Counted from the first letter of the whole stretch, positions 4,444-60,043 are shown. The stretch: DNA of 60,043 bases, filler included, from Hausera hauseri (GCA_046269625.1; 10 parts of 10 records of this genome joined end to end with filler, not necessarily neighbours in it), one strand, 5' to 3'. The notes: generated by a model from the sequence alone, not told the origin. Numbers and translations are program-made.

Positions 4444-4506
4444 TGAACTTAATTCCACCTTTTGTTTGTTCAAGATGCATACATACTTCAGCGATATCAC
4501 CAGATA

Positions 4507-17170: not shown

Positions 17171-17473
17171 ACAAGTCCTAGTAAGGTGGCAAGTCATAGT
17201 GATAGCTACATCACATTTTTATGTGCCTTTACAGTGACTAATAAATAATATGGTCCAAATTGTCAAAGCCATGTGTGCAAAGGGGCACTTACAGTGATTA
17301 ACTCTGTTTTTCTGGTCAGAAATAACCTTTATTTATGTAGTATAAATACCTCCTTATGTAGTATGTCAGTGTCCCCTGGTGTTCATGATGACAAAATACA
17401 GGCAAAAAGTATAGGGCCTATATTAAATCACACAGGTGGATGATGAAAATGAAGGAGACATTTTACATTACGA

Positions 17474-18605
17474 ATGAAAAGGAAAGAAGCTGATATTATC
17501 CCAAAAAGTTTACGAACCGAAGTGCTGATGTCAGAATATGATTCATACTTAGCGGGACATATGTCTTGGAAGAAAACGTTAGAAAGAATAATGAATAAAT
17601 ACTTTTGGCCTAGCATTTATATTGATGTGAAAAATTGGGTAAATGCTTGCGAAGTATGTGCAACTAAACAGAAAAAGACGAAAAACTATATGGCCGAGTT
17701 AAAACCAATTGACGTGCCCGATAGGCCCATACAGGCCATGTCAATGGATATCGTAGGACCTCTTCCTACGACTTATAAGAACAATAAGTATATCTTAACA
17801 TGCATTGATCGCCTAACTCATTTTGTCAAATTGATCGCATTGATATATCAAAAGGCCGAAACCTTGGCAAAAGCTGTTGTATAGAGAATTATTTGTCGAT
17901 ACGGGCCCCCAGATCAGATACTCACGTATAGAGGAAAAAATTTTACCAGTGAATTATTTAAGAAAATCACCAAAATATTTAAATTGAGAGATTAACAACC
18001 ACTGCATATCATCCTCAATGTAATTGAATGGTCGAACGGATGATTGCTACTGCCATACGTATATTATCAACAGTAGTTGCAAAAGATCAAAAAGATTTGG
18101 ATGAATTCTTAGAAGGAACTCAATTCGCCATCAATACCACACCACATCCAGTGACAGGATTCACACCATTTTTCATGATGTATGGACGTGCAGCCGTGTT
18201 ACCCACGGACTTAGGAATGATGCCATACACAATTAAGACCGAAGATTTAGAACAGAATTTCGCAGAAGTGTTACAAACGTGATTGAAAAAGTGTTGGGAA
18301 ATCGCTAAGGAACTATCCCAAGAATATCAAAAACCGTTTAAGAAGCAATATGATAAGAGAGCTAAACCGCACGATATAGAACAAGGAAATTGGGTTTATG
18401 TGCATTACCCAGTTGCTAAAAAGGGCACCTCACTAAAATTGACTCTTACAGGCAGAGGACCGTACGAAGTTACAAAGGTTACGCCAACTACAGTATATAT
18501 TAACAAGAATGGAAAAGAAGACGTCATATCAGTGCAGAGAGTTGTCAAGACAGAATACGATCCAATAAACGTTATAATTTACACCAACGTGAAGCGAAAA
18601 CTTAG
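17474..18605 (+). pseudogene. gypsy integrase (zinc-binding, core, GPY/F), frameshifted
   Basis: GH..KKT..KYFWP..CEVC, SMDIVGPLP, MVER, RGPYEV. Confidence 0.9.
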
Positions 18606-19983
18606 TCAATAGTAGCCAGACCAATCTTATATGTTCAGATAGTTTTAGCATTATCGTTGATTGCTTTTTGCATTCCGAGAACGCAAGCAAAAGGGTGGCA
18701 CGACGGATTTGCTACAGAAAAAAAACCACCAATTGGAGGAATTCAAAGATTATTACAATCAATGTCAATTCATTTCTATTCGTCAAACTCTACATGAGTC
18801 GGGTTCAGGGCTCAGAAACCACACCACGATTTTGAAAGATTCCAAATCATCCTAGACAATATAATGACAGAAGAAACCAAAAACTGTGATTTCAAACACG
18901 GAGAGTATACGAAATTCTGCGACGTAGATTTCGGACGTGCCTACGACCTCACTTATCAAATGTACGTACCAAGTTTATCTAAAGTTTATGAAATAAAGCC
19001 GCCATTTTAACTAATTATCCCTACACGAGACAAAAACCATGGAAAAGAACTGAACGAAATGCTGCAATATACTGATCCCGGTATAAAATTGTTAGATAAG
19101 AATATTTAGAGAATTGCTGTTGACCAGGCAAGATAATGCATCCAAGTAGATACCCGCATAGAATTAACAGATAGTCGAGAAATTAGTATCAGATTCGAAG
19201 CAACAACTGGACCGACCCCGGAAATAGAGTATTGCTCCATTCGTGCAGGTGTACAACATCCCTGCTGCAAACTGCCGGCGAACCAAGATTTCAGAATAAG
19301 ATTTGACTTATACGAGGTGCGACCAAATAAGCCAAGCATGCAATTACGCACTTACTATCCAGAAAATAAGATTTGGTAAATTTCAGTGGAAACCACGATA
19401 AATAAAGCTAGTCGAACTCTTACCTCAAACGACGTACCTAAAGTAGAGTTTGAAAATATACCTATCAAATTTTCGGCCCACCGGTATAAGATCGTGTTCT
19501 TCGTGGAGGAAAAACAAAATTACGATATATATAAGTTGTCGAATCACATATAATAAGCAAATGGTAACACTATTTAAAAGTACTTATCAAGCAGAGTGAA
19601 ATTTACTGAAACCACAATCTTAATACATAGTACAAGTGTATGCAGAGAACAAAACAACCCAAACAATTACATTGCATAATTTAGCTGAAATTCATGCGAA
19701 ACCTCACGCACGCGAAGATATAGACGACGAACTTACAAAATCAATTGCTGCTGGAGCACCACTAAGATTAACTGCTTTATCAGTTGCATCTATTGCAGTA
19801 CTGTCAACCTTTGTTCTGATTATATTAATTGCGATTTTTCGACTAGTTACCAAAAACTGTTATTCTAAGCGTCATAAAAATTCAGAATGGGAACTAAGGG
19901 AATTGGAGAACCCCGTAGATCCATATGATAAAATAACCTGTCAATTACAGATCAGGTTATTCTGTCATCAAACAAAGAATTGA
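18606..19983 (+). pseudogene. accessory type-I membrane protein (ORF-A), copy 1
   Basis: Signal-like SIVARPILYVQIVLALSLIAFCIP; YC-x9-CC motif; TM LSVASIAVLSTFVLIILIAIF; tail ELENPVDPYD. Confidence 0.7.
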
Positions 19984-20040
19984 TTTTGGTTTAAAGCCAT
20001 CCTTTGTTTTAAGATTAACCTTTATGTTTTTTTTGTTCAG

Positions 20041-22540
20041 ATTGGTAAGTAATCATACCCAGATGAATCCGAACTGACTTAGAATCGACACCGAATAAAC
20101 TACGAGCCAATTTAGAATCGACACCGAGAACGCTACAAGTCGACTTAGCATCGACGAATTTTTACAGAAATATGTGACAGTACAAACCCCAAATTCAAAG
20201 GCCATTTATAGGCCAATCAATACCGAATTACAAGGAAAGAACTTTGTTTAATACGGGAAAGTTGGTGAAATCCCAAATGGGTTAAAAGGGACAACCGAAG
20301 AAGCCAGAGCAGTATACTTGTACGCATGGAGAGAGGACAAAGATGTAGGGCATACCTATTCAGACAAATCACTCAATATCAAACAGATAAAAAACAGAAG
20401 AAATACGTACACCTAGCCGACGGAGAAATTTATTATAGGCAAATCCGGTTTAGCACCTTCGTATTAGACAGTAGGAACTTCCACAATTATGAGCTAGAAT
20501 TTCGCGTAGCTTCCTTACCAAAATGATGATCGAAACAACGGAAGAAGAAGTAATACCTGTCTCATTGCCGCCCTTAGAATTCAGGCAAAGGCCCTCGAAA
20601 GAAGAACATGGCACACATCTACATTCGTTTAGATTGGTAACCGATGAAAGAAACCTCAGATTTGTCGCAATAAATTATGGGGAAGAAGAAGGAAATTATA
20701 TTCCGATCGAAATATCCATCCGAGAAGAAAACGGGGCCCAAGTCTATTCGAAAATCATTAACCCGAGAAAGAAAGTGCAAGAAACTTATGCGGAAGTTAC
20801 CGGGATTAAAAGAGAACAATTGAATCATGGAAAGGATTCCAAGTTAGTGCAACAAGAAGTAGCACAATGCCTCTATGGATACGTCTTAGTGGGATATCAA
20901 GTAGAGAGGATGATGAAGAAATTAGCCATACCGGTAACGTATATGGCCGGAGTGAGAGAGATAGAAACCCACCCGACTATTATGAGACAAATGGGAATTA
21001 AAGTTGAAGAAAGAAGGAATCATCTACCACTGACCGTGGAAGGCCGTTTTAAGTTAATGATAGAAGCCACGACCGAGGAAATATAAAAATAAGCAGATTG
21101 CTAACCGCAAATCAAAGATCCCAATATCTAAGGGATAGAAATGTTGGATTAAAGTGCGAACATGAATGGATTCCCAGCAACCCCGGACAAAATCTACAAA
21201 ATTTCCCCGAAATCGAAGAACTCAGCTCACGATACTGTAAACATTTTCGCCCATACTCTCCACCCAGGTATGTCAAAATTAAACCCGAATGGAACTACCA
21301 AATAGCTATACAAGGATTGAAAACGGAGAAAACAGAGAATAAAGTACGTACAGAAGAACAACCCAGTACAACTTATGGCGCCTCAGCGAATAATAATATA
21401 TTTAAGATACCAGAAGTACCTCGGAAATACATAGAAGAAACAAAACCGGAAAAACAACAAAAAGGAAAACCTCCTTTTTCGATTACTTATTCAAGAAGAA
21501 AAGTAAAGAAGGGAAAAAAGGACCGAAAAAAGAACCCAGATCAAACAGAAAAAATTCAAAGTCAAAACAACCAGCAGAAGAAACCTTAAAACCAGATGTG
21601 CGGTCCCGCATTGAGAAGTCTAAGGAAAAACCAAGCAAACGGGAAGAACAAATAACCGAAATATACGTCTTACAAAAGAAAACATCCACGGAAGATGTTC
21701 ACTACACCACTAAGGCAGACTACCCCAGAATGCTAATAGCCACAGAATATTATAGCAAACAAAATATTAAAGAGGCAATGTTTTTTGTCAAACTAATGCC
21801 TGCCAGACAAGTTTATGAGAACACTTATGTCTGGGAAAATCCTAAGATCGGAAAATACGTTGCCCCGATATTTCAGTCCAAACGGAATGGTAAAATCTTA
21901 GTCCCTGTAGATAAGTCAGTTAAGCTGCTGCTAAAGAAACAGTACCAAAAGTACCGGTAGACTGGTAAAGTTCCCGATTTAGATCGAGATACTATCAGCG
22001 ATTGGACCTTAATAGCCGTTGGATGCGATCCCAAGAAAAGCTCGATAAACCCGAAGCAAAAAAGAATTTATGCCTACTTATATCAAGATGAGGAAGGATT
22101 GATAGTAGAGCTTATTGAAATTATATTAAGAATGGATCTAGATGACGAAAATTGGGTGAGAGGAAAACGAATGTTCCGTATGTGAGGCAAATCTGAAGCA
22201 GGGATATTTAGTGTTAAATAACACCGACTGCCGGGACAAGTATTGCATAGACTGCCTAGAGAAATTGACGTTGGATAATGGAAGGATTACATGTCCAGTA
22301 TGCCGAGCTGAAACTGCTGACTTGAAGTACTACTCAAACGGCAGTTATACCAGAATCTTTAAAATAAAGCCCTACCATAGCTATGAACTCGAAAAAAATC
22401 CCAGAGAAGATCAACCAAGTACCAGTTTTGGACCTAGTCTGAGAAGACGAATGAAAATGTTGCGTTCGCCAAGACCTAACGGCACCTCTTCTGACGCAAT
22501 GGGCACATCCAATGATGCCGTTCAGGGAGAAGAAATGTGA
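20041..22540 (+). pseudogene. accessory ORF-B, copy 1: DEDDh-exonuclease-like domain (substituted active site), basic linker, unknown domain X, RING finger
   Basis: FVAINYG..PIEISI..G..VYSKIINP..VTGI..LVGY..VREI matches the REX4/ISG20-type pattern; CSVC..C.D.YCIDC..CPVC at ~22170-22305. Confidence 0.72.
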
Positions 22541-34552: not shown

Positions 34553-34559
34553 CTTTGTT

Positions 34560-35655: not shown

Positions 35656-35749
35656 GTGTTTGTAAAATTTTCACTTTATTTATTATCATCAATTGAAATG
35701 CCATCAACATTAGAAAAATCCCTGTTATAATCAATCATTGTTTTATTAT

Positions 35750-38700: not shown

Positions 38701-38750
38701 GGCAACGAAAACAGTGGATTGCGAATTCTAAAACTTTATTTTCCAAAACA
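35750..38750 (-). mobile_element. Ty3/gypsy (CsRn1-like) element, internally deleted, with LTR remnants
   Basis: Gag IKPPPF..WFEQLESHF; TPFGMFEFLFMPFGL; [23 protein letters not shown]; ~70-bp degenerate direct repeats at ~35760 and ~38676; PBS-like tggcgatc. Confidence 0.9.
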
Positions 38751-38849
38751 AACTCTTATTTAAACAAATTATTGTTTTAATTCCTTTTATAAATTTTCAC
38801 GAATTCATATTATTACAGTGATATAATACACAAATTGATTGTTTCCTTT

Positions 38850-39515
38850 AGAGAAGTATACGTTCGTATAGATGAAGCAATAGTACTTTGGCCAGGCCAG
38901 TTACAGTTCAAGCAATACATCCCTGGTAAAAGCCACAAGAATGAAGTAAAATTGTATATGCTTACTGAGGCGTCGGGATATGTGTTGAACACTATTGTTT
39001 ACTGTGGGCGAGGGGATGTAATCAGTCCAGAACTTGGTCATGAAGGAACAATGGTGATGACACTTTAAAATCACACCTTTGTAAAGGACATCAATTATAT
39101 AAAGCTAATTATTATACAAACATCAAGTTATACAAAAACTAATAAATCATCAATGATCTGTGGAACTTTGCGTAAGAATAGAGCTCAACTACTACCTGCT
39201 ATAAAACATGCAAAGTTACAACGGGGTGAGATGGCACGTATACGTGATGGATGCATTGTTGTCGGTAAATGGCAAGATAAACGTAATGTCCCACTGCTTA
39301 CATCATGTTATTCGGGTGAAATGATTCAAAGCTCAAATCTTGGTAGACAACGCCAGCCAAATATAAAACCTAACCGTATAGTGCAGTACTATAGGTACAT
39401 GTCCGATATTGATAGAAACGACCAATTGATTTCATATTACCAACTATTTAGAAAATCGTTAAAATGGAATCGAAAAATATTTTACATATGATAAATATTG
39501 GTCTTGTCAATGCAT
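38850..39515 (+). mobile_element. piggyBac transposase fragment (PGBD4-like)
   Basis: IDEAIV..FKQYIPGK..KLYML, CGTLRKNR, KWQDKR, MSDIDRNDQ. Confidence 0.88.
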
Positions 39516-39625
39516 NNNNNNNNNNNNNNNNNNNNNNNNNNNNNNNNNNNNNNNNNNNNTTAATTAATTAANNNNNNNNNNNNNNNNNNNNNNNNNNNNN
39601 NNNNNNNNNNNNNNNACGAAGAGTA

Positions 39626-40948
39626 ATGTGGGACGGTGAAGGATCACCACAATGGGAAAACCTTATGGGTAAAGATTATCTAAAGAAAGTAACAAGAAAT
39701 GTTATGGAGAAGATGTGGGGAAAATTTCTATATTTTGGACAAGCCGCCTCTGGTTTCCTGGCTATCTATTTCATTATCAGTGCGTTACGAACAATATTTA
39801 CGGCCCTCGGTAAAGCATATGGAATACACGCAGCAGTAGGTTGTTCATGGAAAATACTAATAGCAGTGATACCAGCTGTAGCAAGTTGCTTTTTAGCTAA
39901 CCACGATGCGCGATGGAAGAAAAAAATATTGCAGAAGGGAGCCAATAAAGAATCTTTGTATAGCATACCTGATAATGACGGCCCCGACTATGATCAAGGA
40001 AGGACGAAAACAAAATACAAACAAATACCTAATATTAAACAAATAATGTTGAAGACACGAAAATCAAAATACCGACATAAGCTTGTGACAGATCTACCGC
40101 ATCTGGATCCCATAGACGAATATCATGGTCAACCATATAATGAACAATTTATAGCAAATCCTTCAGCTCCTAGATACGTGGTACATGCGGGATTGTACCC
40201 AATAAATCAAGTATCGCAGATGCGACAAGATTGTGAGGAAGGCGCAAGACCATATAGGCATGAACCAACGTGCAAAACCGACGATAAAGAAGAAAGATCA
40301 TATACAAGACCAGAAGTAGAAATCGAGGTAAACGGATATCCCATGATGGCTCTATTAGATACTGGATCTACCACCACCATAATGGGAAAAAGTCAACTAC
40401 CTAAAGAATTAAGAAAGAAGTTAAGAAGACCGAAAACCACTTTAATAAATGTAGGAGCGTTTGGTACGGAAGAAGAAATAAAGATGGTTCTTGACGCAAA
40501 TATTAAAATCGGTAACCAAACTGTGAAACACACGATAAGAATAGCCGAGAATTTGACAAACGAAATCTTAATCGGGTGTGATATATTAAGTCAATTAGAA
40601 AATGTATACATAGACGTAAAAACCAGCCAGTTGAAAACGTTTGATGAAGATAAAAGTAGAGGAAAGGTCGCGCTAATAAAAGATATCGTAATACCACCCC
40701 GATCTGAGATAATAGTGCCCGGAAAGATAGAAAGTCCAATACTATCAACAGAAGTATGCTTCGAACCATTCGCACAAGTAATGGAAAAGTATGAAATCTT
40801 GATAGCCCCCCATGTAGATAAAGTAAGGGAAGGAAGAATTCATTTGCGAATTTGCAATACAACAAATAAAGAAAGAAGATTACGAAAGAACACAAGATTG
40901 GGCGAAGTGACGACCAGTGAAGGTATAATTAAACAAGAAACAGGCTAA
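39626..40948 (+). CDS. polyprotein part 1: chuvirus-glycoprotein-like membrane-anchor region, aspartic protease, degenerate dUTPase-like beta domain (5' truncated by contig start)
   Basis: WGKFLYFGQAASGFLAIYF..AYGIHAAVGCSWKILIA; LLDTGS and ILIGCDIL; IVIPPRSEIIV..RICN. Confidence 0.75.
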   Translation: MWDGEGSPQWENLMGKDYLKKVTRNVMEKMWGKFLYFGQAASGFLAIYFIISALRTIFTALGKAYGIHAAVGCSWKILIAVIPAVASCFLANHDARWKKKILQKGANKESLYSIPDNDGPDYDQGRTKTKYKQIPNIKQIMLKTRKSKYRHKLVTDLPHLDPIDEYHGQPYNEQFIANPSAPRYVVHAGLYPINQVSQMRQDCEEGARPYRHEPTCKTDDKEERSYTRPEVEIEVNGYPMMALLDTGSTTTIMGKSQLPKELRKKLRRPKTTLINVGAFGTEEEIKMVLDANIKIGNQTVKHTIRIAENLTNEILIGCDILSQLENVYIDVKTSQLKTFDEDKSRGKVALIKDIVIPPRSEIIVPGKIESPILSTEVCFEPFAQVMEKYEILIAPHVDKVREGRIHLRICNTTNKERRLRKNTRLGEVTTSEGIIKQETG

Positions 40949-40981
40949 ACGGTATCTGATATAGATAAAATAGAAAAATTA

Positions 40982-43447
40982 ATGAAAGAAAAGTTAAAAG
41001 GAGAACCGAGTAAAAATATAAAGAAGGTTAAAACAACTAATATTAATTGGCACGAGAAGTTACAGAATTGTCAAATTTTAACACAAGAAGAAAAGAAGAC
41101 GCTAATAGAATTATTACAAAAGAATAATGCCCGGTTTGCCCAAAATGACTATGATTTAGGTACAATGAACGCGATACAACATACTATTAAATTGAAAGAA
41201 GGACAGGATAACCCAATCAAAAAGAGACCATATCGATTAGCATACGATAAAAAACAAGAGGCGCGAAAAATAATAAAGGAAATGAGAGAAAACAAGATTA
41301 TTCGACCAAGCTGTTCCCCTTGGACGGCTCCTGTAGTAATGGTCAAGAAAAAAGACGGAACTATGAGATTCTGCATAGATTATCGGGCATTAAACGAAAT
41401 TACTGAAACGGATACGTACCCATTGCTCAGGATTGATGAAATATTAGACAGACTCCACGGATCGACTATATTCTCAACCATAGATTTGCAAAAAGGCTAT
41501 TGGCAAGTGGAAGTGAAGGAAGAGGACAAACCAAAAACAGCTTTCTCAATTGGAGAAGGATTATGGGAAATTAACAGGATGCCATTTGGGCTGAAGAACG
41601 GACCACCAACATTTCAGAGAGGAACAGAACTTCTATTGTTGGACGCTCCACATGCTATGGTGTATATTGATGATGTAATAATAGCATCACCAAATTTCCA
41701 ACAACATTTGAAAGATCTGCAAGATCTCTTTGACATATGTGAGATCATGGGTTTGAAGATAAATTCGAAGAAATGTTCTTTTGCCCAGACAGAAGTAGAC
41801 TTTTTGGGACATAGAGTAGACAGATATGGTGTAAAACCACAGGATAAACTATTGGGAAAAATAAAAGATTTTCCAAGGCTGACAACAGTTAGAGAACTAC
41901 GCCGATTCTTAGGCTTGGCCAACTATTATCGGAGATTTATAAAGGATTTTAGTAAAATCGCAAAACCTCTATATGAGCTATTACGTGAAGATCTAGATAC
42001 GGTAATTTGGACCACCGACTGTCAAAAAGAATTTGAATACTTGAAAGAAAGACTAGTAACTGCTCCGATATTGATCTACCCGGATATGAACAAACCATTC
42101 ATAGTAGCCACAGATGCAAGCGATTATGGAGTTGGAGCAGTGCTATCACAAAAGGGTGAAGACGGTAAGGAACACCCAGTAGCCTATGCATCACGAAAAC
42201 TCAACAAGCATCAAAAGAAATACGCCGTGATTGAGAAGGAACTGTTGGCAGTAATATTTGCGCTAGAAGTATTTTCACCGTATATTAGTGAAAATAAACC
42301 ACTATTAATATACACGGATCATCGACCATTACAGTGGTTGAAGCAACACGAAAATCCGAATAGCCGATTGTTACGATGGGCTCTTAAATTACAACCTTAC
42401 ACATTAAATTTCCAGTATAAACCTGGAACGAGAAATGCCAATGCAGATTATCTATCCCGAATGACAGAAAATCCAAAGGTAAAGAAAGAAGTAATAGCAG
42501 CCGTCTGGAGTATGGACGGATCAGTAGAAAAGATTAAACAAAACCAACAGGAAGACTCCGAAATAAAAGTAATAAAAAATTTTATAACGAATAAAGTATT
42601 GCCAGAAGATAAAGAATTAGCTAGACACTTAGCACGATTCGGTGAAGCATATGAAGAAAAAGATGGATTTTTATATTATATCCACCAAGACGGACCAGCA
42701 TTGGTGATCCCAAGGAAAAATAGAACGGTTTTATTAACACAATATCATGATGGATTACTCGGCGGGCATCAATCAACCAGGAAGACACTCAGTAAGCTGA
42801 AACGAAAGTATTTCTGGCCTACAATGATGAAGGATGTACAAGAATGGTGTGAAAGTTGCAAGCTTTGTGCCACACGTAAAAATACTGGATCGAAATTTAA
42901 AGCGCCGCTAAAGGTATGGGACAATCCCCCAGCACCATTCGAATTTACGGCAATGGATATAACAGGGCCACTACCATTAACCCGAAATGGAAACCGATAC
43001 ATTTTAGTCTTTATTGATTACTTTACTAAATGGGTTGTAGCCATACCAATGGCAGACATGAAGGCAGAGACAATTGCTGAAAAGTTCGTGGAAAATGTAG
43101 TGTTTAATTACGGAGCCCCGAGGATTATTCTAACTGACCAAGCCTCCAATCTAACTGGAACTGTAATGCAGTCCATATACGATATTTTAAAGATACTAAA
43201 GCTACGCTCTACACCAGGACATCCAGAAAATAATGGATTAGTTGAGAGGTATATTGGAGATTTGAAAGGAAAACTGCAAACAGTAGTTAATACCAGACAA
43301 GACGATTGGGACGAGTATGTCAATGCATGCGTATTCGTAAATCAAACGTCAGTTCACGAAGCCACTAAAGAAACACCCTTTTATCTTATGTATTTACGGG
43401 ATGCAAGATTACCCATCGACTTGGATTTTAATGTGAGACCTGTCTAA
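40982..43447 (+). CDS. pol: Pol: reverse transcriptase, RNase H, integrase core
   Basis: CIDYRALN, MPFGL, VYIDD, ATDAS, YH..GGH..CESC.LC, MDITGP/TDQA/LVER triad intact. Confidence 0.95.
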   Translation: MKEKLKGEPSKNIKKVKTTNINWHEKLQNCQILTQEEKKTLIELLQKNNARFAQNDYDLGTMNAIQHTIKLKEGQDNPIKKRPYRLAYDKKQEARKIIKEMRENKIIRPSCSPWTAPVVMVKKKDGTMRFCIDYRALNEITETDTYPLLRIDEILDRLHGSTIFSTIDLQKGYWQVEVKEEDKPKTAFSIGEGLWEINRMPFGLKNGPPTFQRGTELLLLDAPHAMVYIDDVIIASPNFQQHLKDLQDLFDICEIMGLKINSKKCSFAQTEVDFLGHRVDRYGVKPQDKLLGKIKDFPRLTTVRELRRFLGLANYYRRFIKDFSKIAKPLYELLREDLDTVIWTTDCQKEFEYLKERLVTAPILIYPDMNKPFIVATDASDYGVGAVLSQKGEDGKEHPVAYASRKLNKHQKKYAVIEKELLAVIFALEVFSPYISENKPLLIYTDHRPLQWLKQHENPNSRLLRWALKLQPYTLNFQYKPGTRNANADYLSRMTENPKVKKEVIAAVWSMDGSVEKIKQNQQEDSEIKVIKNFITNKVLPEDKELARHLARFGEAYEEKDGFLYYIHQDGPALVIPRKNRTVLLTQYHDGLLGGHQSTRKTLSKLKRKYFWPTMMKDVQEWCESCKLCATRKNTGSKFKAPLKVWDNPPAPFEFTAMDITGPLPLTRNGNRYILVFIDYFTKWVVAIPMADMKAETIAEKFVENVVFNYGAPRIILTDQASNLTGTVMQSIYDILKILKLRSTPGHPENNGLVERYIGDLKGKLQTVVNTRQDDWDEYVNACVFVNQTSVHEATKETPFYLMYLRDARLPIDLDFNVRPV

Positions 43448-43606
43448 CATTTAATGGAGGTGCAGGACTATAAACAATTAATTTAAAAACGTCTTCAGTT
43501 AGCCTACAAAACGATTTGTGGAAATCAAGAGGAGTATAAATCCAAATACAAGAAATACTACGATAAGAAGACCAAACAGCCAAAAATTAAAGTAGGTGAT
43601 CAAGTA

Positions 43607-45241
43607 ATGTTATACTCACCAGCAATAAAAAAGGGTAAAACCTCTAAACTGGATAGACCTTACAAAGGTCCATACGAAGTAGAGAAGGTAAGCCTGCCAA
43701 ACATATGTTTGAAGAAGAATAATACGTCGGTAAAGGTCCATATTAATAGATGCAAACCGGCAGCTCGAAGAAGTGAGTTAAGGAAAGGTGAAAAAGAAAT
43801 GGTACTAAGTATAAGAGAGATAAGACAAGAAAAATCTACTTATAAAATGTATTGGACAGTAAAAAGTCTATTGTTAACTATCATCCTCGTATTACCCCAG
43901 ATAGCCGGACAGATGACAGAGCAAGAAATTGAACGAGCAAAGGTACGACATGCGGCGGCCATAAACGAGGATCTATGGTTAAAAAGTTTGAAATATCAAA
44001 TAACGTATTCTATGAAAGGCCAAAAATGTATTCACTGGTATGCCACAAGACGAATGTCTAGCGAGTATATTATAAGGATACGAACAACCCCAATCTACGG
44101 TTATGAGAGGAACTCTGATGAGCGAAATAATGATTGTATATTACGGTCATCCATAAATGAAAGAATATGTCCAATAGATACCTCAGGAACACACGAAGTG
44201 CATCTTACCCTCATGAAGAAGCAAGGAGACTACTATCATAGTCTATATACAAAGTTTCACAGGTATATTCGAGTCCCAAATAGACATGAAATGAACGAAA
44301 CACTACTCGACGAAATAATACTCAGACAGGTAAAGATAAGACCAATGGGATTTAAAAGTGGACGAAGTTGCCTGGAAATTAGGAGCTTGATAGAATTAGA
44401 ATACATTCGATGGATAACAATATCCATAAAAGAAACAGGAAGACGAAAATTGTCCAAATGCAGAATAACAGTAGACCAACAACAAGTTTGCTGCAATGTA
44501 ACAAGAGGCAGAATATACGAGGTTAAATATACTTTATCACGAAAGGAATACGGAAAACTGAGAAATAAAACGCACAGAAAGGGACCAACGATGTATATAC
44601 TATATAAAAATCAGAAAGAATATAACGATATACCCGAAAAAATAGCGCCCTCTGTACAGCCCTCGACTGATAAAATGGAAAGGACTATTCTAGTTAAACC
44701 CTACACATCATACTATCGGGCAAAACGATCTATATGGGAGAATGTTACTATAATAGCAGCCCCGTCTGCGTTAATCATTTCAGTCAGACCAGACTTAGAT
44801 TTTGTAAAAATCAAATTCAGTTGCAAGAAACAAGATATAGTGGTAGCTAAAGGAATCATAACCCCGGATGATTTGGTAGTACCATGTGCAGCCTTAGATC
44901 CAAACACCCGATATACAATAATTTTACAGTTGTTAGACGATAAAGACAAAGTAACATCTACTAAAATAATGACAGCAATCACGAAAGTAAAATATGACAT
45001 AACCGTATTTCATAGGACCAAAACGATTAACCATAAGATAACACTTGAACTCACCCGAACAGTGTATGCACACTCACGGTTAGAAATAATATGTATAGGA
45101 ACAATAACCCCCGTTATATTGGTAATCATAATAACAGTAGCAAGTAGATTCGCATGCAGGCGACTCAAAAATAGAAGGAGCTGGGTCAGAATCGATATGC
45201 GTAATCTAACGAACCCGTTAGATACCGACAATCCCAGCTGA
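43607..45241 (+). CDS. integrase C-terminus (GPY) in frame with accessory type-I membrane protein (ORF-A), copy 2
   Basis: YKGPYEV..VHINRCK, then signal-like MYWTVKSLLLTIILVLPQIAG, Cys-patterned domains, RAKR, FN3-like LDPNTRYTI, TM IICIGTITPVILVIIITVA, basic tail. Confidence 0.8.
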   Translation: MLYSPAIKKGKTSKLDRPYKGPYEVEKVSLPNICLKKNNTSVKVHINRCKPAARRSELRKGEKEMVLSIREIRQEKSTYKMYWTVKSLLLTIILVLPQIAGQMTEQEIERAKVRHAAAINEDLWLKSLKYQITYSMKGQKCIHWYATRRMSSEYIIRIRTTPIYGYERNSDERNNDCILRSSINERICPIDTSGTHEVHLTLMKKQGDYYHSLYTKFHRYIRVPNRHEMNETLLDEIILRQVKIRPMGFKSGRSCLEIRSLIELEYIRWITISIKETGRRKLSKCRITVDQQQVCCNVTRGRIYEVKYTLSRKEYGKLRNKTHRKGPTMYILYKNQKEYNDIPEKIAPSVQPSTDKMERTILVKPYTSYYRAKRSIWENVTIIAAPSALIISVRPDLDFVKIKFSCKKQDIVVAKGIITPDDLVVPCAALDPNTRYTIILQLLDDKDKVTSTKIMTAITKVKYDITVFHRTKTINHKITLELTRTVYAHSRLEIICIGTITPVILVIIITVASRFACRRLKNRRSWVRIDMRNLTNPLDTDNPS

Positions 45242-45352
45242 CGATTATGGTTAGGGATTGCAATAGAGGCAACCCCAAGTAAAAAGATAACTAAACGACA
45301 TCAAGTTATCTTACTCGCTAAAAATAACAATAAAACCACAACGATTACCTAT

Positions 45353-46675
45353 TTGGTATGTTTGATAACCGTTGTGTTGTGTATAAGTATCATGATAAAC
45401 GACCCATTAACTTTTATATTTACAGTCGCAGCAGCAACCTTCCATCAAATCCAGAATATTCATCGATCAAAGCATTGGTATGGTAACGCCAAAACCCACA
45501 TTATTAACGCCAGTCCTGCCAGTCAATACTATGTCTCCCATAATGACAATATGACCAGCTTGAATTATCCCCAGACACCGCAGATACCGAATAATTTGAA
45601 AGGTTATAGTATGGCCAATCGATCTCTGGCCTTGATGCAAATAACTAAAGCTACTTCGTTCCTCCTAACAGATATTATAATTCTACCTGATCGTTTTCAC
45701 TCAATGGGTGTGTACAGTATTGTAGGGCAAATCCAAATCAAGACAACGGACAGAAAAACTTCTATCAAAGGCGATCTAATAAATTTAGACTCAGAACATG
45801 GACTTGCTTTCGACTTCTCATTCCTAAAAGATAATACATTCAAGATTCGTTCTTGTACCAATAGGGTGATCCTAGCACTGGAAATAATAAAAAACGAAAA
45901 ATTCTATCCCAGTCTTCCTGAAGGTAAATGTTTTCACTTGCCGGAGCCCGATTACGTCAAATACAGAACTATTCCTTATCGCAGAATAGAAAAAGTTTCT
46001 GATAACGATATGGTCGTAGTAGCCGTCAATCTGGCCTGCGACCAATGGAATCAACTTCAGCTAACTGAAGCCTCAGTCTTAAATCTTAACGGTGACACAT
46101 TATTCTATGGCATTATTACCCCGAGACAACGTATCAATAATTTTGATACACACATAACAGGTCTCACAGAATTGAATATCAATAACCAAACCGATCCAAC
46201 GGATTTCTATCGGAAGGTGACCGAAGTTATCACAGATAGAATAGTAATTGGAGCCGACGTGGTAGAGATGGTGATAAACCATCTCAAATGCCCCATCCGA
46301 CGGATTGCAGGAGTACGTGATATTTTATGTCACGAGGACGTCATCCGCCGGTACCAACTATCAACAAACACCTACAAAGAATTAGCCCGCAAATTTTATG
46401 ATACAAAGGGCTTCACTCTCAGAAGTACTGCGTTAGCTCAATGCTACCAGTCAATATACAAACAGCTAAAGTGGACGGATGAATACATTGCCCAGAGCGC
46501 GGCCTCCAATCAGGTGCGAACAACACCAACTACATCTCAAGGTGGAAGAAAACGAAGAATCCAGTTGGACGAAACACTAGTACTAGACGATGAAGTATAT
46601 GAGCCTGAGGCAATTCGATACAAGTCAAGAACCTCTGGCAAATATATGCATGTACCCATAACGTTGGACCAGTAA
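45353..46675 (+). CDS. accessory ORF-B, copy 2: DEDDh-exonuclease-like domain with substituted catalytic residues (true start probably via splicing at 45425)
   Basis: VVAVNLA..LTEASVLNLNG..LFYGIITP..INNFDTHITGLT..IVIGA..VRDI. Confidence 0.72.
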   Translation: MVCLITVVLCISIMINDPLTFIFTVAAATFHQIQNIHRSKHWYGNAKTHIINASPASQYYVSHNDNMTSLNYPQTPQIPNNLKGYSMANRSLALMQITKATSFLLTDIIILPDRFHSMGVYSIVGQIQIKTTDRKTSIKGDLINLDSEHGLAFDFSFLKDNTFKIRSCTNRVILALEIIKNEKFYPSLPEGKCFHLPEPDYVKYRTIPYRRIEKVSDNDMVVVAVNLACDQWNQLQLTEASVLNLNGDTLFYGIITPRQRINNFDTHITGLTELNINNQTDPTDFYRKVTEVITDRIVIGADVVEMVINHLKCPIRRIAGVRDILCHEDVIRRYQLSTNTYKELARKFYDTKGFTLRSTALAQCYQSIYKQLKWTDEYIAQSAASNQVRTTPTTSQGGRKRRIQLDETLVLDDEVYEPEAIRYKSRTSGKYMHVPITLDQ

Positions 46676-47545
46676 TAAATTGAGGACAATTTCTCAAAAC
46701 CCCCGTCGAGTTGTTAACGAACTTTACAATTGAATAACGAAATTCGAAATTTATTGTTGACATTGTTGACATTGCGAACCTTGAAATTAACTATTTACAC
46801 GACGAATTATTTAACTACTATTGAAATGATCTATGATCAAATAATATCATCGTGTCATTTACGTGATCATCAAATTTATACCTTTGTGCCATTTGCATGA
46901 TTTGTGGAATTTTCTAAATGTTTTATGAAATTTTGATTATACTACATGTATTATTCCTACGCATCATGGAATTTTTATCATGATAATACCATATGAAGAC
47001 AAGTATATAAAGAACGATTTATGGTACACAATTCACAATTATTTACGACTATTTACAATTGTTTTTTTGATCATGTCGTCACGTAAGTTTTGTGGTTCAA
47101 TGTATGTTCTGTTTGCTAAATTGGTCGTTTTATATGTATTGTTAAAATAGAGTTATCGTATAATAATATTTGTTGAATTTTGTTTTATAAATAAACTCAA
47201 TAACTAATTAACCTTAAGTAAAAGTGGCAGAATCTCCGACCAGGTAAAAGCGACCTGACGGAGGCCTCAATAAAATTTAAGTAAAAACATAAGATAATAA
47301 TCAGTAAGTGAGTAAAGCAGTACCTAATTTCTCATACCCCTCTTGTAACACATTACCTACTTATACTTAGGTAAGATTAGCCTTACATCAGCTCTCCCAA
47401 CGATAACGTATACTTTGTTCAATATTCTGTAAAAATAAATAAATANNNNNNNNNNNNNNNNNNNNNNNNNNNNNNNNNNNNNNNNNNNNTTAATTAATTA
47501 ANNNNNNNNNNNNNNNNNNNNNNNNNNNNNNNNNNNNNNNNNNNN

Positions 47546-48945: not shown

Positions 48946-49609
48946 TGGGGTTGCGCAATGTCGTATTGTTGCTTTGGGCTACTGATCAAAAACGATTTGT
49001 CAATGAACGGCTGCTACAGAAATGTTTTTTAGTTCATGGCTTGGTTAGAGTAGCCCTTTTGACATAAATTGTACCGGATTCCCTTAGGATTTATGGAATT
49101 CATGGTTATATTAATTATGGTTTCACCAATTACCCGGTTGATGTCTTCTGTAATCAGCCAAAAAATTTGTTCTCGTTGGAGCTAATTTGTCTGATATTGC
49201 TGCTGCTCCGCATTTGAATAGCTTACGGGCTAGTGTAACGATTTTAGAAGAGAGTGCACCAGTGAAAGAAGCTGGAAAGTTGATACCGATGAAATTGAAA
49301 AGGTTCGAATTGGTTTCATCGGATAATCATACGTTGTCCCACCAAATGATTTGGTTCTTATCGGCAATACTCAGATTTTTACGGGATAATACCGTGTTGA
49401 AAATACTTCTCGACGAATTCGGAAACCAAATTATCACTTTCGAATGTAAATCGATTGATGATGTATTTATATTTTCTGTAAATTTTTCCAAATTTCCAGT
49501 ACCCGACGATAACAAATTTCGTGCGAGATATTTAATAAACAGATTACCGACTTATTATACGCTCACCTATTTAACACTACGTTTCTATTTATTAAAATTT
49601 GCATGTGCT

Positions 49610-53095: not shown

Positions 53096-53172
53096 ACTAC
53101 TACTTCTGCCAAAGTCTCGGCCTTTTGGTCTATTAACGCTATAAGCTCGATGAAATGAGTCATTCTGTCTAC
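53096..53172 (+). repeat. 77-bp exact terminal direct repeat (= 59967-60043)
   Basis: actactacttctgcc...cattctgtctac identical at both contig ends. Confidence 0.97.
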
Positions 53173-53279
53173 ACAGGTCAAAAGGTATTTGTTGTTTTTG
53201 TGAGGCAATGGTCCTACAATATCCATGGACATTGCCTGCATTGGTCTATCCGGCACATTGATGGGTTTAAGTTCGGTGA

Positions 53280-55132
53280 CTTTCCCTTAGTCATTAGTGA
53301 TCTCAAACGATCCTTACGTTTCCGTCTCAATGACGGGCTGCGGCCTGTACTCTTTGTAATCTTAAGTATTAGTGGTTCCATAAATTCCTTTTCTTCGTCG
53401 GTCTCCACCTTTTGGCTTACCTTTTTCGCCATATACTCTGGTTCTGCGACTAAATATACTTCGTCCGGAGTCTCAGGTTTTCCTGTTTCGTCTAACTCTT
53501 TCTTTATCGTAGAAATATTCTTATTCCGTGCCATATCAATAAGCCTTCGCGGGTCAATGGAACGTTCATATTCAGTTTTCGGTTCACGCGGGCCATGGTA
53601 AATTTCTAACAATGGTAATTTATGCTCGTACGCGTTTCTGGCCACTAAGACTTTAGGGTCTTTAGTGTTAGGTGGGGCCTTTAAGAAACGACGTAAGTAT
53701 TGTATCTCAATGATCATACCTGTGCCTTTACGGACACCGTAAATTACTTCTAAGTTTTTGTTTTTAATTACATTAGTTTTACTAGGTTCCACAAACGAAA
53801 TACTTCGTGGATTTGGACAGGATCTCGCTATGTGTCCTTCTTGTCCACATGAGTAACAAATTAAGTTGCAATTTCGCCGACTTTTGTTGACCGTCTTCAT
53901 TAACCGGGGATTTCGATCTACTCGGATTCCTATTGCAATTCTGATGTTGCGGGGCTTGTCTGGGATCACCATACTGGCAGTTATCATAACTTCGGCAGTA
54001 ATTCTGTCGATTTCCTTTGTTAAAATCTCTGGAACTATCTAGGCGTCTATCCGGATCGTGGTTTAGTTTACTAAATGAACTATTACGGCTACTATCAAAA
54101 TTCCGATTATCATATAGACTACCTTTGTGATAATGGTTATTGTTCTTATTACGGTCCCCATAATTCTTGTTAAATCGCCTATCATTTTTATTATTCCGAT
54201 TTCTATCGCTTCGATCACTTTGATCATTATTTCGATCATTTCTGTCGTTGTTTCTGGTATATCTGTCCAATGTCATTTCTAAGTCCTGAGCTAATTTCAA
54301 TGTTTTATCAAAGTTCTCCGGGAGCACTAGAATCAATTGCTTTACTATGTCTCTAGACCAAATACCATTTATTAACTGCGTCATCATCATGATGCCTAAA
54401 TCTGGAGGACTTGCCTTTTCTGCGGCTTTGCATTTTGCTTCGTTTTTAGCCTTGGCTATGTTTGCTATCCTTGAGGTGCTTACGTAACTGTTTCCCAATT
54501 TCTTTAAGGCAAACACCAATTGGGTTATTGATTTACCGTTCTGTTGTACTCTATTCTAAAAAGCCATGAGTTTTTGTTGAGGAGTTACAGTCGGCAGTAG
54601 TTTTCGGTTCAGGGCTACCACCAGGGAGGACTAGGTTTTCTTTTCGTCGTCAGTGAGCTCGCTATAGGCATCATCGGCCAAATTCTTTAAATATAGTGAC
54701 AGACTCTTAATCATTACGTTAGATGCAAGTCCGGCACCTTCTGCGTGCAGCTTATAAATTCTCAGGAATTCATTGAGTCCGTCTGTGTCTCCGTCGTACG
54801 CCGGCAGATTTAGAGAGTCAAATGTAAAAATGTCCGGTTTCTGCGCTACTGCTTGACTTTCAATCATGTTTTCAACGTTTATCAGATTTTGCTTAATTAT
54901 CTTACGGGTTCTAATTCTTTTATCAGGAACTTTAAATTTAATAGACTGTTTAGCAGCGTTTAAGTCTATGGGTTCAGTATTAGCTAAGTTTGTTTCCGAT
55001 AAGGTGCGTCTACTCAACGTCTTACCTTGTCTGTATACTTTATTGCGTGTTTGGCGAAGATTAATATCCTCCTTACCGTTTAAGATAGAATTTAAACTAT
55101 CGTCCGAATTGTGTCTATCAATATTCGTTCAT
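53280..55132 (-). pseudogene. gag: gag with capsid-like region, N/R/D-rich linker, CCHC knuckle and ~180-aa downstream extension
   Basis: LPAYDGD..EFL..YLKNLADDAY; CYSCGQEGHIARSC. Confidence 0.82.
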
Positions 55133-55389
55133 GCTTTATTCAATTTTTCCGTTAGTTAAGGAATAATCAATAACTCTCCTTCCCAATAAACTATTTTTAT
55201 ATTTGCAAATTTACTGAAGATTCAGTGGTTAATAATAATAAATTTTCATTATTAATTTCTAATACTAATATTTATTTTCAGTTTCACTTTCAGTTTTGTT
55301 TTCCAGCTTCACTTTCTGTTTCATTTTTCAGTTTCGTTTTGATTTAGTTAAGTACAATTTTATTTTACTGCCATTTTACTACATTTCTC

Positions 55390-57800
55390 CCTGAACTGCA
55401 CTCTTGGATGTGCCAATTTCGTCAGAAGAGGTGCCGCATAATCTGTTCAATCGTCCGCGCAAGTTCGCTTCCGAATCCGATTCATCTTGCGGCGATGGCG
55501 GGTCAAAGTGGTAGGACGTAGTGCGTTTTGGGGGCAATATCTCCACTATTTTTTATTTTATCCATTGGCGTAGTATCTCAGTCTTGTAGCCTCAGCTCTA
55601 CATACAGTGCAGGTCGTCTTCCCATTTTTCAGGGTTTACGTTTCTAAACAGTACCGGCAGTACTTGTGGGTACAGTCTTCATTATCCAACACCACGAATC
55701 CTTGGTATAGACTGGCATCACAAACATGGCACTCTTCTTTTTCTCTTCCATCTATGTCTACAAGGTTCTCGTCAACTTCTATTCGTTTAAATAGTAATCC
55801 ATTTTTATCTTGATATAGGTACCCATATAGTCTTTTTTGTTTTGGATCGATGGAGCTTTCTTGGGGTCATCTGATACGGTGACTAACGTCCATTCAACGA
55901 TTTCTTGTTGGTCTAAGTCTAGTATTCCAATCTTCTTATATTGCCTTTTTAATTGTATTTGAACTTGGGTATCTACCAGAATGGTTAATCTATTGGTACC
56001 GTTTTTTGACTGGAATATTGGGGGTAAGTATTTGTCAAAGGTTATGTCCTCCCGAGCGTATCCATTCCCACTTACGATTCTCCTAGGAACAGTGGATACG
56101 TAGAATATGGCTTCCTTGATCTTGCCTTTTCTGTAATATTTGGCCATGACGAGCATTCTGGTATACTCCTTTACTTGCCCAAATTTTGTGACTTTGATAT
56201 TTTCATCCTTTTCCCAATTCTTCCAAAGAACTTTCATTTCCGTTTTACGGGACTTTGTATCGGCAGTTCTCATCTTGATCTCGTCGGGATTTTCGGCTTT
56301 TTGTCTTTTGGGTTTTTCGCTATGCTCATTTATTCGTTTGTTTGGCGTAGAGCTATTAGCAGGTGACTTGTTTTTTTCCACTTGGTTCTTACTAGTTTTG
56401 CTCTTTTTCTTGCTAATATACTCTAAGAAGGAAGTTTTAGTCTTTTGTCCTCTCAAAGTTTTGGGGTTACTTGAATTTTTTTCAATTTCTTCTCGGGCTC
56501 GGCTGGTCAACGGTACCTGTTGGCTGTTGGGCATTTCCACGGAACTATTATGAACGGTTACTCGGAATCGGTTGTGTTATTGGGGTTCGATTTGTCTAGG
56601 AGGTGGGTGTTCGTTAAACCCTTTTCGAAATTTTTGTATCAAGATCTTTGGGTTGTGGCCGGACATCACATTCTGTATGGAGTTCCTGGGTTTCCACTCA
56701 TGTTCCCATCTCAACGAGGCGTAAATATTCTTTATAAGCTTCGTACGCGGACTCGCTGACATTAGTTTAGGAAATTTAAATCGTTCGCCATTCATGGCTT
56801 CTAACATCATTTTGAAATGTGATTCACGTGATGCTGTCGGAAGTAGTCACCCTCTTTTCTTCATCAAAACGGTTTCTACTCGACTTGCAACCGTTGGATT
56901 CCGATTCAGTTCGCGAATTTCGGCTATATACTCTTGTCTAATTCCCAGTCGTTCCAACATTTCGTGCACTCGGAATCCGGTTGCAATACATCCACATAAG
57001 AAATGGCTTATATCTTCCTGTATTTCGAAGAAATCTTCCCCTGCTTCGAGTTGTACTTTCGTAATTCCGGTAACATCGGCAAAGGTGTCCTTCACCCTAG
57101 TTCTCGGTGCAATTATTTTGTTTATAATTTCTTCCCAGTTTGTATTTCGAATATCGACTTCAATCGGCGCATACCATCCATCATCCTTTTCTCCATAGTT
57201 CACGGCTAAAATTGTAGTATTGCAGCCGTCTGGAATTAATTTATAAGATTCGCCATTTTGTTCTATTTCATCTTCTGAAGGCTTTTGCATGCACATTAGT
57301 GGTGGTAGCGGACTCATTAATTCTGTCCGCCAGGTCATTTCGAACATGAGTATGGTTGGGAGTTCTGCGATTCTGAATTCCAAAGCATAGTTCATGAGAC
57401 TATGGCAACATAACTCATAAGTGCTAAATTTCCATTGTTGTTCGTTTTGTGTGCTCCAGGATTGTCCTACGATTCTGTATTGGATTTCTCCATCAGCTAC
57501 ATGTACGTACAATTACTGATGAGTTGGTTCATATGGAATCATATCTCTCAACAGGTATGCTCGTGCGTCTCTGGGGCTTCGCACTGCGTATAGCCGAATC
57601 AGTCGATTGTCCTCTAAACCCCATTTCAACCAATTTGGTATTTTACTTTCCTGACCGATTTCGACATAAGTTTTGTTTTTCAGATTCCCTCCAATTTGAC
57701 GATAATGGTTTGAGGACTGTTACATGCTGTTGCAGGAAGTTGTCGATGTCATGTTCGGAGCTGGTTGCTGAATTCTTTGCCTTTTTGGTCATATTTACTC
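55390..57800 (-). pseudogene. accessory ORF-B, copy 3 (pseudo-exonuclease, basic linker, domain X, C3HC4 RING)
   Basis: ORFs starting at 57512, 56810 and 56540 share one frame; ILAVNYG..PIEVDI..IIAP..VTGIT; CHVC..CTHKYCRYC..CTVC. Confidence 0.75.
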
Positions 57801-57897
57801 TGCTGAAATAAAAATAAAGGTCAATGCTAAGACAGATCATCCTTTTGAAACAAAACATTTTCTCTGTCTGATGATAGGATAACCTGGTCTGTAATTG

Positions 57898-59237
57898 TCA
57901 ACTTATGCTATCATAAAGTTCTTCTCGGCACCCTTTTACCCGTTTATCTCTCTGTCGATTTTTACTGCGTTTATTACAATTTTTGGAAAATAGAAAAATC
58001 ATCGCCGTTAATATGACAAGAACAAAAATTGACAAACTTAACATATCTATCATCGGTAATTTGTTTGGTTCAATAGAACCTTTTGTGGTAAACGCATTTT
58101 GAGTACTAAGATCTTTATAGTGCATTACATCAATTTGCTGTCAAGAGTTCGTACCGTAAAAGTTTTAGGGTTTTACCCTTCGCGGTGATTAGGATTACAT
58201 AGTTATGCTGCGGTCGTAATGATGGCATTCAGTTTCCTGACTATTCTTTCTTAGGATTATGATTCGGTTGGTGTGCAGGATGCGACATTCAATTTTAACG
58301 TCTTGATTTAACGTTCCTTCAGCGTAAAATAGGATTTTATCACTTTTTGCTAAAGTCTTAATCAGTATGCTCCCTAGTTTCTTTTAGGGTATTTCATCTG
58401 AAGTGACGATCGCAGTAGTGAGAGTTGTACTTGGAATAGAGGACGTATTCCTCGTAGTGGTTGGAAACGGACGCTTCCATATTCCGGTTTTTGGGCGGTA
58501 TCCTCGTAAGTAAGTACTCGGTTCTTTAGGGTAAGTATTGTAGAGATCAAACTGTAACTGGTAGTTGTGTTCTAGCTGCAATCTACAACATACAGTAGGC
58601 TGTCTTCGTGCGAGATAACAATACTCCTAAATAGGGACCGAGGCGTTCAGTGGTATAAATCGGACAGAAATATGTCTGTCTCCTGACAGTTCTATTTTGG
58701 TCTCAATTCGGGTACATTAATTCTTTAAGTCCTTGAAAATCCCAATAATTTTATAATCTAAGAGCCTTTTAAATGGATCAGTACATTGGATTATCTCATC
58801 CATCTTGGCTTGATTCGTGTCATTTCCTTGAGGCGTCCTTATTAAAAGTTCAGTAATTATATAGGCTTGGGCTCCGGGTTGATTATAATAGAATATTTGA
58901 AATCTGTATCGGTATGTTTGTCCGAAATCCAAACTACAACACTTCCTATGAGCTCCGTACGGAAAGTCGCAAGTTTTCATCGTGTACCTAGTCACGAATA
59001 TAATTTGAAATTTTACCTGATTCTGAATAGGTTTACTTGCTTCAAACCACGCACATGGTTTGCTCAAATCCATATCATATACTCTAAGTGACTGTAACTT
59101 TTGAATATCCTTTAGTCTTTTGCATATTGTAGTTTTTCGGTTAGGGTTATCGACCTTGTCTTTGGTATATACGAGGGGATTAACGATAAGGCGAGTACTA
59201 TTTGTACATACGATATTGGTCTAGTCACTATAGACAT
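57898..59237 (-). pseudogene. accessory membrane protein ORF-A, copy 3
   Basis: MSIVTRPISYVQIVLALSLIP; C..CC repeats; TM MLSLSIFVLVILTAMIFLF. Confidence 0.72.
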
Positions 59238-59264
59238 CGTTTTCTTTTCTTTATTCGTATAATT

Positions 59265-60043
59265 CTATTTTACTTTGCTCGAACGCAAACTGTAGCGTTT
59301 GTTTGGTCTTATTTCCGTTTTAACTACTCTTTGAATTGATATGACCTCCTCCTTGCCGTTTTTATTTATATAAACTGTGGTTGGTGTAGTTTTGATAACT
59401 TCATAAGGTCCTCTGCCTGTCCTGGTAAGTTTAAGAGATGTGCCTTTCTTTGCCAGTTTCCTGGCTCTAGATCGTGTGGTCTCGCCTTCTTGTTGCATTT
59501 CCTCTTCAATTGTTCCTGACATTCTATAGATAATTCCTTGGCTATTTCCCAACACTTGTGTAATCTGGATTGCAATACTTCGACAAAATTTTGCTCTAAG
59601 TCTTCCGTTCTTGTTGTATATGAGATCAGTCCTAAATCTGTGGGCAGTACAGTTTCTCTACCTTAAATCATGAAAAATGGAGTGAATCCCGTCGCAGGAT
59701 GTGGTGTAGTATTAATGGCAAAATGTGTGCCTTCTAAAAACTCGTCCCAATCTTTCTGGTCTTTTCCAACTACTGTTGATAAGATTCGTGTAATTGTCGC
59801 GTTCATCCGTTCAACCATCCCATTACATTGTAGATGATAAACTGTGGTAGTTAATCGTTCAATTTCAAAAATTTTGATAATTTTTTTGAACAATTCTCTC
59901 GTAAGGTTTCTTCCTCGGTGTGTCAAAATTTGTTCAGGTGGTCCGTATCTGCAAATAATTTTCCGAACTACTACTTCTGCCAAAGTCTCGGCCTTTTGGT
60001 CTATTAACGCTATAAGCTCGATGAAATGAGTCATTCTGTCTAC
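59265..60043 (-). pseudogene. gypsy integrase core and GPY domain, copy 3
   Basis: Near-identical peptide blocks to 17760-18600 (CNGMVER, FAINTTPHP, RGPYEV). Confidence 0.9.

Follow-up and report, generated by a model that had tools for sequence, protein, structure and literature searches.

A Ty3/gypsy element of Hausera hauseri with a gB/chuvirus-type env before pol and, after integrase, a predicted fibronectin-type membrane protein and a pseudo-exonuclease ORF

Introduction

Multi-copy errantiviruses with the order GAG-ENV-POL, in which a Ty3/gypsy pol is preceded by an env of the HSV/gB type (HSV, herpes simplex virus) related to that of chuviruses, have been reported from Platyhelminthes, Nematoda and Bryozoa (Chary and Hayashi, eLife, PMC13524379). 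In the giant planarian elements Burro / GYPSM1, env also lies in frame between gag and pol, and accessory domains linked to ubiquitination are present (PMC6431247). The bdelloid elements Juno and Vesta carry a gene for a DEDD-fold exonuclease downstream of pol, and their third open reading frames (ORF3s) are said to come from spliced messages (PMC5408684). A precedent for in-frame glycoproteins after integrase is Atlas virus, a belpaovirus with a Gag-Pol-Env polyprotein and an attachment/fusion pair, GN and GC (PMC9094657). In this study, we report an element from Hausera hauseri (GCA_046269625.1), found in a 60,043-nucleotide stretch of DNA (the window) in which N spacers link ten contigs, the guanine plus cytosine content is about 36% and transposon debris is abundant. 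The element fills the contig at 39616-47445 on the plus strand and is called family A here; two relatives in the same window are called family B. The start of the contig removes the 5' half of the element, with gag and most of the env ectodomain.

Results

Env and pol of the family A element

A single frame of 1,874 codons (39617-45241), interrupted by TAA codons at 40946, 43445 and 43484 and closed by a TGA at 45239, encodes the end of an env protein, protease, reverse transcriptase (RT), RNase H, integrase and a protein with signal, ectodomain and transmembrane (TM) segment (Table 1). An earlier note on this DNA had described a frame of about 1,870 codons with three TAA codons and the same series of products, and Pfam and the translation bear this out. 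Beyond the TGA the same frame is open until a TAA at 46673. Over 39617-46675 the main frame holds 5 stops, whereas the two remaining sense frames hold 250 and 172.

At the N-terminus of the frame, PF24664 (Monjiviricetes_fusion) was matched with E 1.5e-15 (1.1e-14 in the whole-frame scan) and 56.7 bits vs. a cut-off of 27. The match spans profile positions 520-617 of 653, i.e., only the last 100 or so positions are present. A PDB sequence search with the env fragment gave no match. It must be noted that a query of env plus protease at longer protein lengths found nothing despite containing the protease, so that blanks of this kind, including those given below for the membrane protein, are weak. 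The catalytic motifs of protease, RT and integrase are all present, and the order protease-RT-RNase H-integrase obtained with Pfam is that of Ty3/gypsy elements (Metaviridae). RNase H and integrase are of the gypsy type (PF17917, PF17919 and PF17921 matched; GPY at 43664), while no BEL/Pao-type Pfam family appeared at E<=0.1. Assignment to Copia or to BEL/Pao was rejected on domain order and Pfam. Judged by these domains, the element is retrovirus-like and of the Ty3/gypsy group, and its gB/chuvirus-type env stands ahead of pol in the same frame. Between protease and RT lies a spacer (40670-40900) that has no Pfam match and resembles a degenerate dUTPase-like domain. A metagenome scan returned six generic gypsy loci at 27-38% identity, none of them matching env or cargo, and a scan of viral sequences returned no matching locus.

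Table 1. Features of the family A element and its family B relatives, in window coordinates.
Feature	Position	Strand	Basis
Env C-terminal part, chuvirus/HSV-gB-type (class III), two hydrophobic segments	39617..39979	+	PF24664 Monjiviricetes_fusion; hydropathy
Aspartic protease, in frame with env, DTG at 40358	40304..40600	+	PF00077 E 1.3e-11
Reverse transcriptase, YIDD at 41663	41342..41818	+	PF00078 (RVT_1) E 1.6e-32
RNase H (RT_RNaseH)	42083..42400	+	PF17917 E 2.4e-40
Integrase, HHCC, DDE core and GPY module at 43664; TAA 43445, 43484	42707..43760	+	PF17921 (Integrase_H2C2) E 3.6e-20, PF00665 (rve) E 1.1e-11
Internal signal-peptide-like segment, in frame with integrase, no intervening stop in the family A copy	43847..43909	+	Judged by eye from translation
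Type I membrane protein, short tail, TGA 45239	43910..45241	+	Structure model, Foldseek, VIA-align, ESM Atlas; family B homology
First predicted FN3-type beta-sandwich	~43964-44281	+	Model
Second predicted FN3-type beta-sandwich	~44318-44611	+	Model
RAKR site	44717	+	Motif
Probable third domain	44900	+	Motif only
TM segment	45086-45157	+	Hydropathy/translation
Nucleotide-conserved island over tail and stop, predicted RNA hairpin	45175..45250	+	Contig depth, folding
Candidate splice acceptor (branch-point-like motif, pyrimidine tract, CAG; AG ends 45425), after conserved island 45330-45400	45330..45425	+	Motif rule
Accessory ORF2, 415 codons from acceptor-like site: N-terminal domain, exonuclease-fold domain, short tail	45426..46675	+	Profile, shuffles
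SDN1/ISG20-like DEDDh-fold domain without catalytic acids	~46000-46470	+	Three-copy profile
Short hairpin, then C-rich non-purine stretch where polypurine tract expected	46680..46711	+	Folding, sequence
Candidate 3' long terminal repeat (LTR), TG...CA, 5-bp inverted ends, TATA-like 47004, AATAAA 47190 and 47269	46712..47350	+	Sequence motifs
Family B copy 1, decayed: integrase, membrane protein, acceptor-like site 20040, ORF2 (dead exonuclease, X, RING), purine tract, TGT	17453..22540 (contig 16532-23316)	+	
Family B copy 2: gag with CCHC knuckle, integrase core, membrane protein, acceptor-like site 57803, dead exonuclease, X, RING, purine tract, TGT	53096..60043	-	

Other copies of the element

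Other copies were represented by the contigs of two public runs that aligned at at least 85% identity (12,452 and 1,640 contigs), and they cover all 30 bins of the element in both runs. One run is possibly the source of the window itself, so this coverage shows repetition and not independent support. In run X1, other copies differ at the two TAA codons of integrase in 2,911 of 2,916 and 1,202 of 1,215 of the summed depth, and at the first TAA (40946) in 93.6 of 93.6, from a single contig. The TGA at 45239 is not among the best 40 of 55 variable rows. Therefore, on this comparison, the three TAA codons are read as decay of the present copy and the TGA is probably the true end of the long frame. 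Contigs of other copies bridge the junctions between env tail and protease (39943-40329), integrase and membrane protein (43639-44050), TM segment and spacer (44971-45311), and spacer and ORF2 (45255-45577).

The membrane protein after integrase

The product that follows integrase has a 390-residue ectodomain bearing cysteines, a TM segment and a tail of 27 residues. Its single-sequence structure model holds two beta-rich domains, with 10-residue blocks at a pLDDT (predicted local distance difference test) of 34-77. Foldseek gave 278 matches at E<=0.001, with query TM-scores of only 0.15-0.18, and the matches listed are proteins with tandem FN3 arrays (fibronectin, Tie2, IL-2R beta, IFN-gamma receptor, gp130, contactins and Robo). 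With VIA-align, residues 20-125 superposed on a fibronectin FN3 domain with Z 8.4 and 2.2 A over 84 residues, and residues 138-235 with Z 8.1 and 2.9 A over 89 residues. In addition, all ten best family matches in the ESM Atlas carry fn3 or its clan (top score 0.92). From the model, an FN3/Ig-type sandwich pair is likely, while the third domain is a guess from motifs. This fold and the gB/chuvirus type of env go beyond what the earlier note had identified.

Sequence comparison with outside proteins was negative. Pfam fn3 matched neither the whole protein nor any of three pieces; no relative was found among 1.84 billion representatives, nor in a 5.8-billion set searched at near and shorter lengths (longer fused forms were not searched); and a three-copy profile of the protein had no match among PDB sequences. 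A test for internal repeats was weak, since domains 1 and 2 were matched by 6 of 500 shuffles and the other pairs were not significant. Within the window, the protein aligns with both family B copies at 22-26% identity with shared cysteines, and its local alignment score of 75 against each was reached by none of 500 shuffles in either case. It diverges more between the families than integrase does (38-40% identity), as expected of a host-facing protein.

ORF2 and candidate splicing

The exonuclease-fold ORF of the earlier note was recovered by a three-copy profile of the domain, which matches SDN1 (E 1.3e-7) and ISG20L2 (E 9.9e-6). Within the catalytic D-E-D-D-H set, the D and E of motif I and the D of motif II are replaced in all three copies (the first Asp by Asn, that of motif II by Met), and motif III was not aligned by the profile. 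An active exonuclease was rejected on these replacements, and the term pseudo-exonuclease, already used for it, stands. The structure model of ORF2 is of low confidence (pLDDT 30.9). Its N-terminal domain gave no usable ESM Atlas match, and a WW-like motif near the ORF2 start (45527-45560) had Salvador WW as its best PDB match, which was not significant (E 2.5).

Acceptor-like sites were defined as at least 10 T in 18 bases followed by YAG. Exactly one such site occurs on the sense strand of each element (7,060, 5,090 and 4,664 bases scanned), and in each case it directly follows the membrane ORF, with a branch-point-like motif ahead of it. When the local regions were shuffled 300 times, such a site arose in 5, 19, and 11% of the trials. 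The in-frame ATG upstream of the acceptor varies in about one third of the depth among other copies. The acceptor-like site is compatible with splicing at the motif level, and ORF2 is likely a spliced gene; to this extent the splicing proposed earlier for the cargo is supported. In family B copy 1, a donor-like motif lies 4 bases past the acceptor-like site (20041-20050), possibly marking a micro-exon or arising by chance.

Conserved islands and the 3' end

Over the island at 45175-45250 the summed contig depth rises up to 11,250 vs. about 500 nearby. Its hairpin (-21.6 kcal/mol, z -2.9) was equalled in stability by 1 of 200 shuffles. Among other copies, this island and that at 45330-45400 recur far more widely than the surrounding coding DNA, and they may act in cis as RNA signals in splicing or packaging. 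An Rfam scan of 44900-47445 gave no match. The hairpin at 46680-46711 is no stabler than its shuffles (63 of 200 as low).

The candidate LTR begins less than 40 bases past the ORF2 stop. Its depth is 48 in the mid-region (one contig) and 1,166 in the last bin, a profile compatible with a variable U3 and a conserved U5. A RING in the family A copy was rejected, given that ORF2 runs straight to the LTR-like end and no RING is found there.

Family B relatives

Both relatives have the order integrase, membrane protein, exonuclease (17.4-22.5 kb, plus strand; 60.0-55.4 kb, minus strand). This agrees with the earlier proposal that the cassette is a family architecture and not a chance insertion. The two copies share 72% DNA identity over integrase, and the family A integrase is 38-40% identical to theirs vs. 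30-32% to four other elements. A seven-row integrase tree did not fix the placement of family A, nor did it show A and B as sisters. The exonuclease domains of both families are homologous (0 of 1,000 shuffles each), as is the domain before the exonuclease (0 of 1,000; one B copy compared). Between the B copies, differences at third codon positions exceed those at second positions in FN3 (0.60 vs. 0.40), exonuclease (0.61 vs. 0.37) and RING (0.63 vs. 0.19), a pattern compatible with past purifying selection on the cargo.

RING and X were found only in family B, the RING with PF13639 at E 6.4e-6, below the cut-off, and in both copies a purine tract and TGT stand at the end of the RING ORF. In all three copies the cargo precedes the LTR-like start, which counts against the possibility, raised beforehand as a refutation, that it lies outside the LTRs. 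The contig of copy 2 is circular, with a 77-base terminal overlap, and gag is joined to the integrase core by a deletion. On its sequence, this copy appears to be a non-autonomous deletion derivative, a tandem array or a circle, which kept the whole cargo and lost protease, RT and RNase H. About 240 bases separate its purine tract from the gag start. The full map of the earlier note, gag-X-env-PR-RT-RH-IN-membrane protein followed by Exo-X-RING, proved to be a mosaic of two families at the above integrase identity, with gag, X and RING drawn only from B. The suggested length of more than 12 kb was not supported.

Other features of the window

Another contig starts and ends with the same 184 bases (27847-28030 and 33794-33977, 95% identity), as a terminal direct repeat or collapsed tandem unit, and encloses a SOCS-box ORF at 30322-30972 (E 4.9e-8). 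Decayed ZNFX1-like helicase fragments (47548-49690; PF25396, E 7.2e-23) adjoin a gypsy gag-pol relic at 50242-52995. This relic and the regions 4444-16431 and 34078-39515 are other decayed gypsy elements (RT and integrase 30-53% identity). A Tc5/DDE_1-like transposase remnant at 34953-35522 was below the cut-off.

Discussion

The architecture of the element is much firmer than any role proposed for its products. With this in mind, we tentatively favor, at a little under an even chance, that the FN3 membrane protein is the attachment or adhesion partner of the gB-type fusogen and that both come from one topogenically processed polyprotein. The polyprotein would be threaded through the membrane of the endoplasmic reticulum, env being anchored first. 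The protease, RT and RNase H, along with the integrase, would remain cytosolic, where the protease would cut. The internal signal after integrase would then restart translocation, and signal peptidase would release a type I glycoprotein, which would be produced in parallel with env. This glycoprotein could bind neighboring cells, or particles to target cells, letting the gB-type protein fuse. The pairing is proposed by analogy with herpesviruses, in which gB, a class III fusogen, depends on gH/gL and receptor-binding partners (PMC8262866), and Atlas virus offers the precedent for the position of the second glycoprotein. On the same reading, ORF2 is a likely spliced gene whose dead exonuclease would bind RNA ends or compete with host nucleases of the REXO/ISG20 type, and in family B the attached RING finger would turn it into a ubiquitin-ligase adaptor.

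A number of observations weigh against this reading. Regarding the fold, the single-sequence model is weak (mean pLDDT 41.8, with residues 218-444 below 50), Ig-like domains of unrelated glycosidases tie with FN3 in VIA-align at Z 7.6-7.8, and recognition by the ESM Atlas is low (value 1585, with 156 features shared). Against 2,002 targets, 2,000 of them shuffles, a profile built from both family B proteins placed the family A protein only third, and the RAKR site is not common to family B. Both B copies have one same-frame stop between integrase and the signal segment, so the fusion of the membrane protein to Pol is seen only in family A. Env was not seen in the family B contigs, and env and the FN3 protein were seen together only in family A. 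As for the element's end, the family A copy has no purine tract at the expected position and its contig holds no second LTR that would confirm the candidate. Finally, the acceptor rule was set after the sites had been seen.

The main rival, which we consider possible but doubtful, is that the FN3 protein derives from a receptor ectodomain that was captured and acts as a decoy or modulator, sequestering a cytokine or growth factor of the host or blocking superinfection independently of fusion. The fold matches include receptors such as IL-2R beta, IFN-gamma receptor, gp130, IL-12R and Torso, but cytokine receptors tie with fibronectin and adhesion molecules and do not stand above them, and no WSXWS-type motif is visible in the translation. 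Both predicted domains contain paired cysteines, and the short tail has no signaling domain. The RAKR site could release the two N-terminal domains, although it is missing from family B; the cassette itself is present there, where env was not seen.

It is rather improbable that the FN3 gene has a start of its own as an accessory ORF distinct from the polyprotein, incidentally fused to pol and with a role unrelated to env, e.g., cell-cell adhesion of the expressing cells. The stop that both B copies have between integrase and the signal segment speaks for it, as does an ATG at the start of that segment in one B copy and at 43847 in family A. Nevertheless, both B copies carry many other stops, no acceptor-like site was found upstream by the rule used, and another copy of the family A element retains the same length across the junction. 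A last alternative, in which the cargo is host DNA carried along passively or a nested insertion of no use to the element, is very improbable and largely refuted. The contig offers no 5' LTR or target-site duplication, but four observations tell against this alternative: the recurrence of the same order in two families with integrases about 40% identical, the codon-position differences across the B cargo, the coverage of all bins by other copies and the LTR-like start after the cargo in each of the three copies.

Returning to the FN3 protein as partner of the fusogen, a wider proposal can be built on it, which we hold to be unlikely as a whole. A two-glycoprotein entry machine, formed by the gB-type fusogen and a captured FN3 attachment protein in one polyprotein, would be combined with a spliced pseudo-nuclease (with RING in the sister family) directed against host RNA decay, as a complex retrovirus-like organization arisen independently of vertebrate retroviruses. 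For the way in which env-carrying retrotransposons of invertebrates choose and enter target cells, an FN3 surface protein next to a gB-type fusogen would be a concrete attachment factor, with parallels in herpesviruses and paramyxoviruses. A pseudo-exonuclease retained in two divergent families points to a host RNA-decay step that the elements may oppose. In addition, the findings suggest that surveys ending at the pol stop may miss 3 kb of conserved accessory genes.

Comparison with known systems

The closest relatives in organization, the errantiviruses with gB-type env, were described with env alone. The word "exonuclease" has no match in the main text of that work, and no post-integrase membrane protein is mentioned in the sections covered (PMC13524379), which also weighs against our reading. 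Its authors did not search other ORF arrangements, and eight of the nine flatworm rows in its table have no recorded LTR within the searched flank (PMC13524379); these unrecorded LTRs may leave room for unnoticed cargo after pol in flatworm elements. Burro differs in its gypsy/F-like env, whereas the family A env matches the gB/chuvirus-type family, and in its BIR, MATH, BCL2 and ankyrin cargo, which lies upstream of pol in elements of more than 30 kb; the published domain list includes no FN3 protein or exonuclease (PMC6431247). Burro has a dUTPase-like spacer between protease and RT (PMC6431247), where family A has only the resemblance noted above.

The ORF3 of Juno and Vesta is an RNase D-like DEDDy protein that keeps its catalytic residues and replaces env (PMC5408684), whereas the exonuclease of families A and B is SDN1/ISG20-like, lacks the acids and, in family A, accompanies both env and the further membrane protein. 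Atlas virus is a BEL/Pao element with a phlebovirus class II fusogen and both glycoproteins after pol, and its FN3-like topology is domain III of the fusogen (PMC9094657). Herpesviruses are DNA viruses, and no homology of the FN3 protein to their gB partners was found or is claimed. Literature searches, some of them directed at FN3 proteins or membrane proteins following integrase in LTR elements, gave no account of an element that joins a post-integrase FN3 membrane protein to a gB-type env and a pseudo-exonuclease, Repbase entries being outside the search. The earlier view that the combination matches no described family can be kept for the 3' cassette with a gB-type env, while env before pol was already published (PMC13524379, PMC6431247). 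In summary, there are precedents for the element class, for the order of env and for cargo of the exonuclease type, and the novelty appears to lie in the 3' cassette of membrane protein, acceptor-like site, pseudo-exonuclease and LTR-like end.

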